A stretch of DNA of 64,000 bases from Eledone cirrhosa. Its lineage: Eukaryota. The stretch's first letter is position 1. The number at the start of each line of letters is the position of its first letter. The DNA is taken from the NCBI GenBank assembly GCA_964016885.1, contig CAXHJY010000744.1, positions 1 through 64,000 of the forward strand. The letters are read 5' to 3'. The position numbers and the translations under genes are program-made. The notes beneath the pieces were generated by a model that was not told the DNA's origin, searched no databases, and saw only the letters and a list, made by a program, of their open reading frames with translations. Shown piece after piece: positions 19,434 through 61,390 of the stretch.

Positions 19434-19539
19434 GCTTACATTTGTTTCACTGAACTGGTATGTCTAGAGATCGCTATCCGCTTAATTTTGCGTTACTCGA
19501 TCGCCAATACAGAATTATAACCAGTCAGATCTTCGGAGC
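19434..19539 (-). ncRNA. Hammerhead-ribozyme motif, CCGAAGA core variant, long stem II
   Basis: Minus strand: GCT-CCGAAGA-T CTGACTGGT..ACCAGTTCAG T-GAAAC-AAAT-GTA-AGC. Confidence 0.6.
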
Positions 19540-19614
19540 ATGCGAGAATGAAGAAAATACACTTAGGACTTCACCTAAGTGGACTGCATTTAACTATTAT
19601 TTGTTAATCCGATT

Positions 19615-20596
19615 AATATATATAGTATATATATTATATATAATATATATATATATAGTATATATATTATATATATATATATAGTATATATATTATATAT
19701 AATATATATATATATAGTATATATATAATATATATATAAATAGTATATATATTATATATATATATAATATATATACTATATATATATATAATATATATAC
19801 TATATATATATAATATATATACTATATATATATATAATATATATACTATATATATATATATATATATATATATATATATAATATATATACTATATATATA
19901 TATATAATATATATACTATATATATATATATAATATATATACTATATATATATATATATAATATATATACTATATATATAATATATATACTATATATATA
20001 CTATATATATATATATATATATATATATATATATATATATATATATAATATATATTAGTATATATATATATATATAATATATATTATATATATATATATA
20101 TATATATATATATATATTTATATATATATATATATAATATATATTATATATATATATATATATATATATATAATATATATTATATATATATATATACTAT
20201 ATATATATAATATATATTATATATTATATATATATTATATATATATATTATATATATATATAATATATATTATATATTATATATATATATATATATATAT
20301 ATATATAATATATATTATATATTATATATATTATATATATATATATATATATATATATATATATAATATATATTATATATTATATATATTATATATATAT
20401 ATATATATATATATATATAATATATATTATATATTATATATATATATATATATATATATATATATATAATATATATTATATATTATATATATTATATATA
20501 TATTATATATATATATATATATATATATATAATATATATTATATATTATATATATTATATATATATATATATATATATATATATATATATATATAT
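19615..20596. repeat. (TA)n array with TAGTA/TACTA and TTA/TAA punctuation
   Basis: Direct reading. Confidence 0.95.
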
Positions 20597-20660
20597 ATTC
20601 GGGGGAAATCATCAGGAAGGGGGCTTACTGATGATTTCTCCGAATGAAACAGTTCTAGTC
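20597..20660 (+). ncRNA. Degenerate hammerhead-like motif inside a short fold-back
   Basis: CTGATGA (20628-34)-TTTCTCCGAAT-GAAAC (20646-50). ATTCGGGGGAAATCATCAG just upstream is its inverted copy. Confidence 0.45.
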
Positions 20661-21329
20661 CTGTAGAAACCTTTTCTATATTAAATATTTATACTCTGTT
20701 TTGTATTGAGTACCTTACTTCGTTAAAGATCTTTGAATACATATAAGGGGATTCCTTTTCTTACTGTAATACATTTATTTTAATAAGTTTCTAATTAGAA
20801 ACCAGTTTGCGACATTTTGAAATATATATATGTATGTGTGAGAGAGAGAGAGCTAGAGAGAGAGAGAGAGAGAGAGAGAGAGAGAGAGAGAGCGCGCGTA
20901 TGTGTGTGTTGAAGTAAAACTTATTTCTTCCTTTTCGCATCGAAAATATTAGATAGCATCTAACCATATTTTTTTTCGATAAATTCATTCCATTTATCTA
21001 ATTAATATCTAATAGAACCGTTGCCACCATCTTCACCGAAGTTAACTGATGCTTAATGTAACGTTTTCATGTGTACATAGGAAGATGGAGTCCTTGATAA
21101 ATATAGCGACTGTATTTTGCTGCTGCCAAATGAGAATAATTTGCCATCTCACAATGAAGAGTGTGTTGCTGGAAGCTGTACAGTTCTTGCGTGAGATCGT
21201 TTAATCCATTAACATTTATGTTACTCTATATATACTATTGTATTTTCGTGGTAAAGGCTTTATCTTACACAATTATATCACATGATATCGAATCTATGAG
21301 ATTTTGATATTATTTATTTTGAGAACAAT

Positions 21330-21429
21330 CTTTTAACATGACTATGAGAGGCCAGTTACAGCCCGTTTAAACAGAAAGAGGTGAGAGAATTCTGGCCGGA
21401 TACGGCCGGTTTAAATGCTAAAGGGTTAA
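21330..21429 (-). mobile_element. Terminus of a DNA-transposon/MITE (TTAA-CCCTTT end, piggyBac-like)
   Basis: Ends ...GGCCGGTTTAAATGCTAAAGGG-TTAA. The partner end was not found. Confidence 0.35.
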
Positions 21430-57435: not shown

Positions 57436-58939
57436 ATATGAGACACCAATATTGACTAATGACGTTGCGTTTGATCTTAACATATGAAATAAGCTATTTA
57501 GTAGTGGCGTAAAATTACATCATACAAATCATTACACACAACATAATAGGTTCTGAAATCAAAGCAAACAATACAAAGGTAACGTTATTAAGAGATTACT
57601 AATTAAATGAAAAAAAATAATAGATGAATAAGTAGATAAAAAATAAAGTGTATTGACTACACAGAGGACTTTCATATTATGCAATTTTAGTTGTAATTTT
57701 ATTAAACTTTTACAAAGAGATGGAAAAAAATGCTGATATATAAAGAAGGATTTTTAACTAAGACAAGTGATTAAATCGACGCCGACATGGTTTGAACTTA
57801 GAATATAAAGAGAAGACACTAAATGTGGCTAGGATTTTAACGGACGCTTTGCCAATCCAGTATCCTTGGTTTTACTATATGACAGTTTTCTATAATTATT
57901 TTCTTTTACTTCAAATATTGGAGTTTTTCCCGAAAGATTAGTCTAAATCCATACGTTTAGAGCCTATATGGGATAGGTTTTATCCAGTACATTAGCCCGG
58001 GACTTGGAGGGCTAAGACAAGGTTCGCGAAAAGCTGACGGCTTCCAAAGGAAACCTCGTAACCCCTTGAATCTCGAGAGGAGCTTTCACTCATCTAGCCT
58101 AGAGCGGATTAATCTTGCAGAGATTCTCTGGTTTATCATGAGATTCATCTATATATAATATATTATTTATAGTAACAAGAAAATTAATTCGGAGACCTTT
58201 AAATATTGCGAACCTCTGTCCATAATCTGGTAGCCCTCCTATTTTAATCCACCACTACACTTAGGGCCGACAAACGTCCTGAATTCAAATCCTGTTAGGA
58301 GTCGACTTTGGCTTAAACCCTCCAGTTATGTACTGGGGTCGATCTCATCGGATATACCCATTCCTTGAGATTTGAGGCTTTGTGTATATATAAGAAACCA
58401 ATATTATGTATTCACTTCTACTTCAACTTTCTAGTAACATCTAAATGGACTGAACCAGTAAAGGCGGCTCGGCCAATTACAACTAACTATTTAGAATCTG
58501 TACAATTTTTGTCCGTTTGTCACACAGGAACTTTTCGATCTGTCGAAAACATTCTAATTTTTCTTTTAGAATTCAAGCAATACACAATTGAAGCAGAAGA
58601 AACATGGGGAGAAGGAGATTCAAATATACTAAATGTTCTAAGATGCCTTCTTTTATGCAAGAAATCAGCGTTCTCTGCCAACAATGTTGTCTATCTGCCT
58701 GTCTATTTGTTATTTGATTATCAGTCTGTATATATGTATATATGTATGTCTCTTTCTCTCTGTCTGTCTGTCTGTCTCTCCCCTCCTCCTCTCTCCTTTT
58801 CTCTCTTTCTTTAAATATATATATATATATGCATCGGTGTGTGTGTGTGTGTGTGTGTGTGTGTGTGTGTGTGTGTGTGTGTGTGTGTGTGTGTGTACGC
58901 GCGTTTAGAAGAAATACTGTGTAGCGTCGGAAAATTCTG

Positions 58940-59140
58940 TAAATCAAATTGGAGACAGAATGAAACGATTCAAACGGAACAAACAAATAACTTCCGATCT
59001 TCAGCCATCCGTTTTGAGCAAAGATATCCAAGTATATCACAGATATGAACGAATATCTGCGCTCAGAACGAATGGTTGAAGATCGGAAATTATATGTTTG
59101 TTCCATTCGTATTGTTTTATTCCGCTTCCAATTTGATTTA
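58940..59140. repeat. Diverged ~88-bp inverted repeat with decayed hammerhead-like cores
   Basis: Arms are ~58940-59027 and ~59053-59140. Minus strand ATGG-CTGAAGA-T-CGGAA..TTCCG-TTT-GAATCGTT. Confidence 0.65.
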
Positions 59141-59328
59141 TATATCTACGTATTTTTGTTGCAGTTTGATGAAGAATCCGAATATTACTAATTCAATCCT
59201 TAAGACCACGAATTATGCACTACTACAATATTATATGTATGGAAAAGTAATAACAAAAATAACAAAACAAACGGCACAGTACATGGAAGAAATATATTAG
59301 TTTAACGCTTGAAATAGCAGGAAGAGAG

Positions 59329-59364
59329 TCTTAACGTTTCAGACACAAGTCCTTCATCAGAAGA
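59329..59364 (-). ncRNA. Minimal hammerhead motif (no stem III loop)
   Basis: Minus strand: TCTT-CTGATGA-A-GGAC-TTGT-GTCT-GAAAC-GTT-AAGA. Confidence 0.7.
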
Positions 59365-61390
59365 TAGAGTTAGAAGTAGAAGATAAATAGAAAGTAAACA
59401 AAGGAAAGAACGGGGAAAATGAGAAGGAGAAAATAGGGGAAAAAAAAACAAACACGTGCGTATTTAGTCGGCCATCTTGGGGAGTATCATATATAGTAAG
59501 CTACTATTTTCCTGCAAAATATTTTATCCGTGATTTTTAGGAGGCTGGAATAAAAACAGAGAACACTAATCACAACTACAGTAGAACATATTTCAGTTTT
59601 CCAGAGCGTTTTATAGATGCCATGTGATATCTTAATGTCTTGCCATCTAAAGGAGAGAGAAAGTTCTAGAACTAATGTTGAAGATATTGTACAAAATAGT
59701 AGACGTGTCTTTGCTTGCTTCTAACTTAATAAACACAAAACGTAATTTTCACACCTCCTTCATCTTCAAGTAAATGAAAGTATAATTACTTCTATTCGTC
59801 GTTATTTTTCTTCTTGTTCTTCCTCCTGAATTATTGTCACTGTCCGTTTAAACATTAAGACTAAACGTGTCACTATATTTAGATAAATAGTTTTGACTAG
59901 TTGATTATTTATATAACTTAATAAACACAGGAAGTAAATCCGACACTAGATGCACTATACATAGTTTGAATTTACAGTATCAAGGAGGTTTCAGGTCTGA
60001 ATATTTCTGATAAATTGTGCAGCTATTTATCAGTGAATGGTGACGTAAATGACCAATAGTATCACATAACTATCTGATAAGTGTTGTACACTAAATGGTG
60101 AGAAATTGATCGGTTTCAACATCTCAGTAAATTAGTTTGCGATGATACTTTTTAAATGATTTCTTTTTGAGGGATAAAGAAAGTTTTAGTAAAGAGCGTA
60201 ATGTCTTGTAATTTTTTATATTGTATTGGGTTGCCAACAAAAGCCGTGTTTTTATTTGTTTCTGTTGGTGTTTTTCTTTAGTTAGGCTTTCCATCCATGA
60301 CCACCCAAATGTTTACATATCATGGCACCGAAGCATCAAATAGAATTCTTAAGCCAGGTAATGGGTTGAGTATATTACCAAAAGAAATTGAATGGTCCAC
60401 TCAGCTTGTAGTAAAAATACACCGTAAAGACCAGTTGGAGGTGTTAAACCGAGCAACAGATTAAGGCTAACACACAAGAAAAAAGAAACGGTCACTTTGC
60501 TGAGCTTTTTCATGTCTCTCACGAAACATTGGTCAGCAAAATGATGTAGTAAGAGACACTTGCCTAAGGTACCACGCAGTAGGCTCAGAGGCGAAACCAC
60601 AAGGTTGAAAAGCGGATTTGTTAATCACACAGCAGCCATTGTAGCTTCCTGCTATACATTTTAGTTTATAAGACTGTGAGATGAGCATCAATGCATTTAA
60701 GTGAAAGACGACACCAGCTATCTTTCATGTTAAAATAACCTAACTTATCTGCAACTGATTTATCACAAGTATAGATTAAGAAACACAAGAGAACACGGAG
60801 AAAATGTTTTCTTTCATTTACGAGAAGCATTTCCTGTGAAAAAGATGAAACAATCTCTGATATGTCCTCCAGTGACTGAACTGTAACTAAAGTAGGAAGT
60901 TCGAGAATTTTATCGGCTCCTTTTCTTCAAATATAGATTTTATTATTTATTGAAGAAGATTAGCAGAGAAACACGACACATATTCATTGTACCCCTTAAA
61001 ATGCACACATTGATAGTTTGATTATATTCACGTGATTTTTATCATATATAAAATGTTCACATCTGTATTATCTACCAATGACTTCATACGAATGTATATA
61101 TATATAATATTAAGTGCATATATATTATGAAAAAGCGATGTGTATATATAATATTGAGTATATATAATATTGAGTACATGTTATGTATAATATTAAGAAA
61201 AAGCGATGAAACTCGTTTACATGTGTTTATTGATTATCGACTTGTTACGTCGTTTCACTGAATCACCTATACTCTGTGTGTGTGGGGGGGGGGGAGAGAA
61301 AGAGATGAATATGCAAAATAACTAAAGCAGAGAGCAGAGAGCCGAAACAAATACCGCAAAGCATTCTATCCGACGCATATATACTGTATA

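Follow-up and report, generated by a model that had tools for sequence, protein, structure and literature searches.

What has scattered hammerhead ribozyme motifs through the short islands between dinucleotide arrays in the genome of Eledone cirrhosa? The question is raised by 64,000 nt of that genome (NCBI GenBank assembly GCA_964016885.1, contig CAXHJY010000744.1, positions 1 to 64,000; hereafter the window), in which an earlier note had picked out at least 12 such motifs and taken them for remnants of Penelope-like elements (PLEs) or non-autonomous ribozyme retroelements. The motifs occur far above chance, and we consider it probable (roughly 0.8) that they are the 3′ ends, or pseudo-long terminal repeats (pseudo-LTRs), of at least six old endonuclease-bearing PLE families, present as 5′-truncated copies in (TA)n or (TG)n. 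The window has a GC content of 24%, and microsatellites, mainly (TA)n arrays up to 14.6 kb long, make up about 26 kb of it.

Hammerhead motifs and their families

Both strands were searched with a type I hammerhead descriptor (stem I of at least 3 bp, stem II of at least 4 bp, GAAA-N..N-UH). The control was the 37.5 kb of non-microsatellite sequence after local dinucleotide shuffling, repeated 200 times. The strict CTGANGA core, which was fixed independently of the candidates, gave 6 matches against a mean of 0.045 (maximum 1) in shuffles, so hammerhead density lies above that of shuffled sequence. Relaxed cores and settings were picked after the candidates were known: a CYGANGA core (U4C allowed) gave 9 matches against 0.06, a stem I as short as 2 bp raised the count to 10 (adding 30742+) against 0.65, and the loosest setting gave 24 against 5.7. 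The 9 passing motifs count as 7 independent insertions, because self-BLAST identified 48108−/49069+ and 55028−/55126+ as arms of inverted duplications. This amounts to one passing motif per ~7 kb and one insertion per ~9 kb; the spacing of 3–4 kb proposed earlier is reached only when decayed copies are counted. The per-megabase equivalent, ~110–140 passing motifs, is a local value only, since ~40% of the window is microsatellite.

All 14 sites listed in the earlier note as CTGANGA motifs are hammerhead-like, but the literal core is found at nine of them (20628+, 30742+, 43352−, 48108−, 49069+, 52589+, 55028−, 55126+ and 59360−), with CCGANGA at three (19536−, 36894−, 45575−) and a TTGA core at two (36594−, 33257−). 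Ten of the 14 pass reasonable descriptor settings and the remaining four are decayed or incomplete: 20628+ and 36594− pass the loosest setting only (stem I of 0–1 bp), 33257− passes it solely in a different register, and 52589+ passes no setting. The U4C change is described in Perreault 2011 as reducing activity in vitro, yet tolerated in a viroid.

Grouping by core-flanking sequence yielded families A, B, C and D plus the single insertions 43352−, pair E, pair F and pair G, which agrees with the claim of several unrelated families. Family A comprises 19536−, 45575− and perhaps the 61,25x remnant. The hammerhead at 19434–19539 (−) has a CCGAAGA core (U4C), an 81-nt stem II region and a GUA cut at 19437, and shares its flanks with 45575− (2 of 500 shuffles were equally good), where the hammerhead at 45533–45579 (−) combines a CCGAAGA core with a palindromic loop III and AATAAA at +4. 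The remnant at 61246–61265 (−) is a 3′ half resembling this family, with AATAAA 14 nt past the predicted cut. Family B consists of the decayed 20628+ (20620–20665, +; core intact, stem I unformed), an inverted 5′ half, 20615− (20598–20622, −), which abuts that copy and was absent from the earlier note, and 52589+ (52580–52617, +), truncated by (CA)n at stem III and the cut.

Family C is formed by two minimal hammerheads, 36894− (36862–36899, −; CCGAGGA core, loop-less GAAAC-GUU) and 59360− (59329–59364, −; strict core), which are 71% identical over 204 nt. Upstream of the hammerhead by ~120–140 nt, both copies start with AAGATGGC (37018–37026 and 59467–59478, −; the sequence is also found at 17718–17733), and a pyrimidine tract comes next; AAGATGGC is perhaps akin to a YY1-type internal promoter motif. 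Family D unites 30742+ (30738–30780, +; 5-bp stem II with a 5′ bulge, 2-bp stem I) and the decayed 36594− (36557–36598, −; C3U), which have a common core flank and 3′ end. The 36594− element resumes on the far side of a nested insertion and reaches (TA)n near 34769; its 3′ end resembles the one belonging to element 30742+, a likeness equalled in 1 of 500 shuffles. The 1.6-kb insertion that splits the 36594− element, at 34898–36528, has a 19-bp target duplication (34879–34897 / 36529–36547) and an open reading frame (ORF), 35098–35673, that ends in a CxxC motif and gave no match in a Pfam search; the insertion is presumably L1/Tx1-like.

The best-formed hammerhead is 43352− (43283–43355, −), with the strict core, a 5-bp stem II plus inner hairpin, a palindromic stem III, a GUA cut at 43286 and AATAAA at +6. 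At the other end of the range, 33205–33262 (−) holds a decayed hammerhead-like motif with a TTGAAAA (U3/A8) core and a non-adjacent stem I, and 29812–29845 (+) a possible, weak 3′-half remnant with a palindromic stem III and no core. The partial remnants reported at 29812–29845, 31338 and ~61245–61262 are 3′ halves in which no 5′ core can be recognised. In two motifs the stem II region is long (48 and 81 nt), and two-sided stem changes were seen by eye once in stem II of family D and twice in family A.

Inverted pairs, arrays and an endonuclease fragment

All three aligned inverted pairs that bear hammerheads are head-to-head, with an extra 3′ segment on one arm only. Pairs E and F have arm identities of 96–97% by self-BLAST. 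The left arm of pair E (48008–48325, −) contains the hammerhead 48057–48113, with a 5-bp stem I, a 10-bp stem II and AATAAA at +5, and its right arm (48852–49192, +) the hammerhead 49064–49118 and a one-sided tail of ~24 nt. In pair F, the left arm (54857–55070, −) has a hammerhead at 54971–55036 with an 8-bp AT-rich stem I and a one-sided tail of ~70 nt; the right arm (55084–55226, +) has one at 55118–55183 with AATAAA at +4. The inverted arm of pair G (31185–31237, −) is identical at 53 of 53 positions to 31350–31402 in the direct arm (31238–31507, +), which carries a hammerhead 3′ half (GAAAC-GCGC-GTC, 31338–31349), AATAAA 7 nt past the cut and a one-sided tail of ~99 nt. The 5′ end of the inverted arm falls exactly at its partner's predicted cut (31349/31350). 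This was seen in one of the three pairs and could be chance; a literature search for truncation at hammerhead cut sites found no report. Inverted 5′-truncated copies with a one-sided tail of 30–40 bp are given as PLE hallmarks by Craig 2021 (PMC8557442), and two of the three tails in the window exceed the length stated there.

Nearness to an array proved to be directional. A TA or TG array lies within 300 bp of 8 of the 9 motifs, but the same is true of 54% of all non-microsatellite bases; direction is the stronger test, the median distance from cut to downstream array being 80 nt against 576 for random positions (P = 0.0016, the inverted pairs not being independent). The left-arm motif of pair E (48062) has (AT)5 in its own loop, and its actual array distance is 62 nt. 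The frequent presence of AATAAA within ~15 nt of the cut was confirmed: it starts 4–6 nt past the cut in 6 of 9 motifs, which represent 4 of 7 insertions, whereas the background within 15 nt is 2.4%.

A C-terminal PLE GIY-YIG endonuclease (EN) fragment of 111 aa is encoded at 30154–30489 (+), with CCHH residues and a stop ~20 aa past LNxKxE; it is truncated upstream by (TA)n. Hammerhead 30742+ of family D follows ~250 nt past the stop on the same strand, and then (TA)n. Fragment, hammerhead and array together are a 5′-truncated PLE 3′ end. Of the Penelope reverse transcriptase (RT) and GIY-YIG that had been read here, the endonuclease stands and the RT does not, and no RT remnant was detected in the window by a search profile that was built from endonuclease relatives. 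Nor is this the mobiliser of the whole population, as had been suggested, being a 5′-truncated remnant without RT that belongs with family D only.

Among 1.84 billion representatives searched, 411 relatives of the fragment were found at E ≤ 0.001, and in the alignment the GIY-YIG core and its CCHH residues are visible. The top-scoring named relative is an Octopus bimaculoides protein (48%). In long relatives, RT motifs and a CX2-5CxxC linker precede the EN, which is C-terminal; RT is present in the full-length relatives P0102 and P0132, and RVT_1, HTH_animal and GIY-YIG occur in the clusters next to P0102 in the Atlas. A Pfam search with the fragment gave no match, and 3 of 20 relatives gave sub-threshold GIY-YIG; no longer relative emerged among 40 candidates of a word-based search, and a PDB sequence search gave a weak I-TevI-type match (E = 0.35). 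In metagenomes, 0 of 52 stretches found with the octopus relative P0005 were confirmed, and a hammerhead plus AATAAA pattern hit 74 loci, of which 1 passed the stem test; PLE coding sequence and likeness to the window were lacking in all of them. L015 and L057, two of these loci, share one and the same minimal hammerhead, with a 5-bp stem II and a stem III that lacks a loop, and AATAAA comes after it; both are probably PLE ends of host animals. In P0102, P0132 and P0039 the EN is C-terminal, yet RT motifs 3 and 4 are separated by an extra ~55 aa, a position at which Craig 2021 (PMC8557442) finds an insertion only in clades with an N-terminal EN; judged by sequence, they possibly represent an under-described PLE lineage.

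These features are close to those of published PLE hammerheads. Cervera & de la Peña 2014 (PMC4209133) report that such motifs number thousands per genome, fall into many families and are mostly solitary. As in the examples described there, the window's motifs are type I with a short stem I and a stem III of 2–4 bp that has a palindromic loop or none, several unrelated families share a genome with solitary copies taken as truncated PLEs, opposite-strand pairs lie 100–700 bp apart, and a U3-A8 core variant and an extra base on the 5′ side of stem II occur. The window differs in its high density (7–10 per 64 kb against thousands per genome), in two motifs with 48- and 81-nt stem II regions and in three with U4C.

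The Hydra clade has its hammerhead ~100–200 nt from the 3′ end and inserts into (TA)n, including Hydra-1_Obim of Octopus bimaculoides, according to Craig 2021 (PMC8557442). The window shares with it (TA)n insertion and inverted 5′-truncated copies, and families A and B have the U.U closing pair and longer stem III of many Hydra-clade rows, but no motif in the window equals the one listed for Hydra-1_oBim when compared by eye. Family D is not Hydra, because its endonuclease keeps the CCHH that Hydra lacks; Hydra also has a CxCX5C linker and DKT, whereas relatives of family D have CX2-5CxxC and DKS. Neptune/Nematis-type PLEs are similar in having a C-terminal CCHH-containing GIY-YIG and, in the relatives, the CX2-5CxxC linker, through which microsatellites have been proposed to be favoured as insertion sites, although the window fragment itself lacks both linker and RT. 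The short spacer past CxxC looks closer to the Nematis rows of Craig 2021 (Fig. S2, PMC8557442), but the long relatives carry the extra ~55 aa, so that a placement in either clade would be tentative. Naiad elements, with an N-terminal endonuclease and no canonical hammerhead, are unlike the window fragment, where a stop follows the endonuclease and a hammerhead is present.

Weighing the origin of the motifs

That these are PLE remnants in microsatellites, as first proposed, is supported by the endonuclease fragment, the inverted-plus-tail structure, the location of the motifs close to the 3′ (TA)n junction and one multi-copy island. The last is the TA-bounded island 43013–43563 (−) around 43352−, for which four sequencing runs were aligned to 43005–43571 at 80–100% identity. 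Run X1, from the same organism and possibly from the source sample itself, gave 1985 contigs across the whole island, 929 of them <95% identical; run X10 (restriction-site-associated DNA, or RAD, reads of another study) gave 3092 reads, run X5 (another organism) 38 contigs and run X6 none. Such depth is not copy number; in two studies these alignments show all 550 bp of the island to belong to a diverged, dispersed repeat. Contig depth peaks at its 3′ end without being monotonic. Frequent variants of 43352− lengthen stem I (3 bp becomes 5 bp) and close an inner-hairpin pair, an insertion pairs a bulge, and others break pairs; no variant fell in the core among 40 listed of 161, where ~1 was expected by chance. 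A reading of the island as a miniature inverted-repeat transposable element with terminal inverted repeats was rejected, its end similarity being equalled by 91 of 300 shuffles.

Several results weigh against a PLE origin of the whole set. A window-wide Rfam scan at gathering cut-offs returned no hammerhead match, the Rfam model representing canonical and not minimal forms; the best score was 18.7 bits (cut-off 34) for 43283–43355 against Hammerhead_1. No Rfam match was obtained for pair E and 59360−, and no hammerhead was present among 150 listed of the 812 matches in a window-wide E-value scan, in which TA repeats dominate. Folding energy reached z ≤ −1.5 in only 2 of 13 motifs, most being no better than shuffles. 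A profile from the endonuclease relatives detected no further PLE coding remnant in the window, which contains no full-length PLE copy; PLE coding sequence is thus physically linked to family D alone, and we infer the PLE origin of the other families by architecture only, and likewise any activity. Copy structure was tested for the 550-bp island only, whose diverged contigs cross its 5′ TA junction, which is unexpected under random 5′ truncation. Among 12 listed stem variants of 43352−, 5 keep or create a pair (C-G to U-G counted) and 5–6 break one or leave it unpaired.

The strongest alternative, though we regard it as unlikely, is that some families are non-autonomous units with fixed ends, such as SINE-like (short interspersed nuclear element-like) solo pseudo-LTRs or monomeric retrozymes, mobilised by a PLE protein acting in trans. 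The repetition of the entire island and the 5′ junction common to its diverged contigs fit such units, as does the lack of coding sequence upstream of most motifs, and the Li et al. 2026 preprint derives animal retrozymes from PLE pseudo-LTRs. Non-LTR retrozymes (Cervera & de la Peña 2020, PMC7229834; Li et al. 2026) are likewise non-coding, carry a type I hammerhead and are tied to PLE pseudo-LTRs, but those described in PMC7229834 are head-to-tail tandems of ~150–400 nt with canonical hammerheads. No head-to-tail tandem array in the window, the defining trait of non-LTR retrozymes, contains a hammerhead motif, and the canonical loop 1–loop 2 architecture is absent from the motifs. Moreover, family D has coding sequence, the depth on the island peaks at the 3′ end as under 5′ truncation, and the 5′-truncated ends of ordinary PLEs explain short islands.

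It is very improbable that the host has retained the hammerheads as RNA-processing or termination signals combining a ribozyme with a poly(A) signal. The appearance of AATAAA 4–7 nt behind the cut across five unrelated families would suit this, but cores and stems have decayed, motifs stand in both orientations and are nested by other elements, and there is no host gene context. The sequence is a feature of the element, because, of 44 rows counted by eye in a published PLE alignment, 7 have AAUAAA behind stem I, labelled only 'AU-rich'. Least credible of all are chance matches in AT-rich, repeat-laden DNA, which the 5.7 shuffled matches at the loosest setting, the mostly unremarkable folding and the missing Rfam gathering match would favour and which may apply to the weakest sites, 29812 and 33257−, but which are refuted for the set as a whole by the 100-fold excess at strict settings; the family sequence common around cores, the directional array bias and the AATAAA enrichment also speak against them.

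Neighbouring repeats, a possible mechanism and its meaning

Other repeats share the window. Huge (TA)n arrays with strand-biased G interruptions occupy 200–14847 (14.6 kb) and 22605–29046 (6.4 kb); their lengths could be genuine or inflated by long-read assembly. C-terminal RT fragments of long interspersed nuclear elements (LINEs), together with a putatively mariner-like remnant, lie between TA arrays at 34237–34704 (−), 44856–45317 (−) and 55755–56591; the ends of the mariner-like remnant are 62-bp inverted repeats, and relatives of one LINE fragment include an O. bimaculoides sequence (52%) beside other taxa. An abundant SINE-like family is found at 48662–48851, 42310–42523, 53732–53889, 39094–39298 and 54214–54362, and one SINE-like copy, flanked by a target duplication of 10 bp, is inserted within pair E's right arm. 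Imperfect palindromes free of hammerheads are present at 58940–59140 (200 bp, 79%) and 52687–52794 (108 bp, 69%). A TA-bounded family at 33460–33650 and 19105–19254, head-to-head with a one-sided tail of ~75 nt and without a hammerhead, has GC-rich alternative hairpins close to its 5′ end and is itself a probable PLE-type 3′ end; for the 33460–33650 palindrome a twister-like reading was rejected, as no Rfam ribozyme matched.

Following published PLE work, the GIY-YIG domain of the element would nick AT-rich DNA. Target-primed reverse transcription would begin inside the RNA, 50–270 nt downstream of the ribozyme, at one of two sites, giving the one-sided tail, and would mostly end after a few hundred bases, leaving little besides the hammerhead; priming from both nicked strands would give head-to-head pairs. 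Frangieh 2024 describes a PLE protein that cuts and extends both strands of AT-rich DNA and two internal RT start sites that produce the one-sided tail. Since motifs are intact with 50–270 nt behind them, most templates would have been neither cut by the ribozyme nor polyadenylated at the adjacent AATAAA, in agreement with the finding of Frangieh 2024 that unprocessed RNA is the main substrate and cleavage dispensable in vitro; pair G is the exception. The short palindromic stem III predicts weak cleavage, only as dimers or with protein help, and the majority of copies in the window are predicted to be inactive, given their core changes and lost stems.

The start of arm 31185–31237 exactly at its partner's predicted cut raises the idea, which we consider doubtful, that ribozyme-cut RNA templated integration in vivo and that 5′ truncations may pile up at cut sites genome-wide. 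If so, AATAAA 4–7 nt behind the cut would be a conserved switch between ribozyme and poly(A) signal.

Hammerhead-bearing PLE ends are already established, and the window adds several undescribed octopus-type families of them. Among the matches listed in a literature search on hammerheads in cephalopods, Craig 2021 alone covers the combination; a repeat annotation of O. vulgaris counts 31 recently active PLE families and, in the text available, does not mention ribozymes. Regions of TA arrays can hold motif densities well above the published genome-wide averages of thousands per genome. The observation would gain weight if insertion ends cluster at the cut, as this would bear on what PLE hammerheads do in vivo. 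If cut RNA did serve as template, this genome, with roughly one motif per 7 kb where it is TA-rich, could be read as a natural fossil record of that role, which Frangieh 2024 left open.

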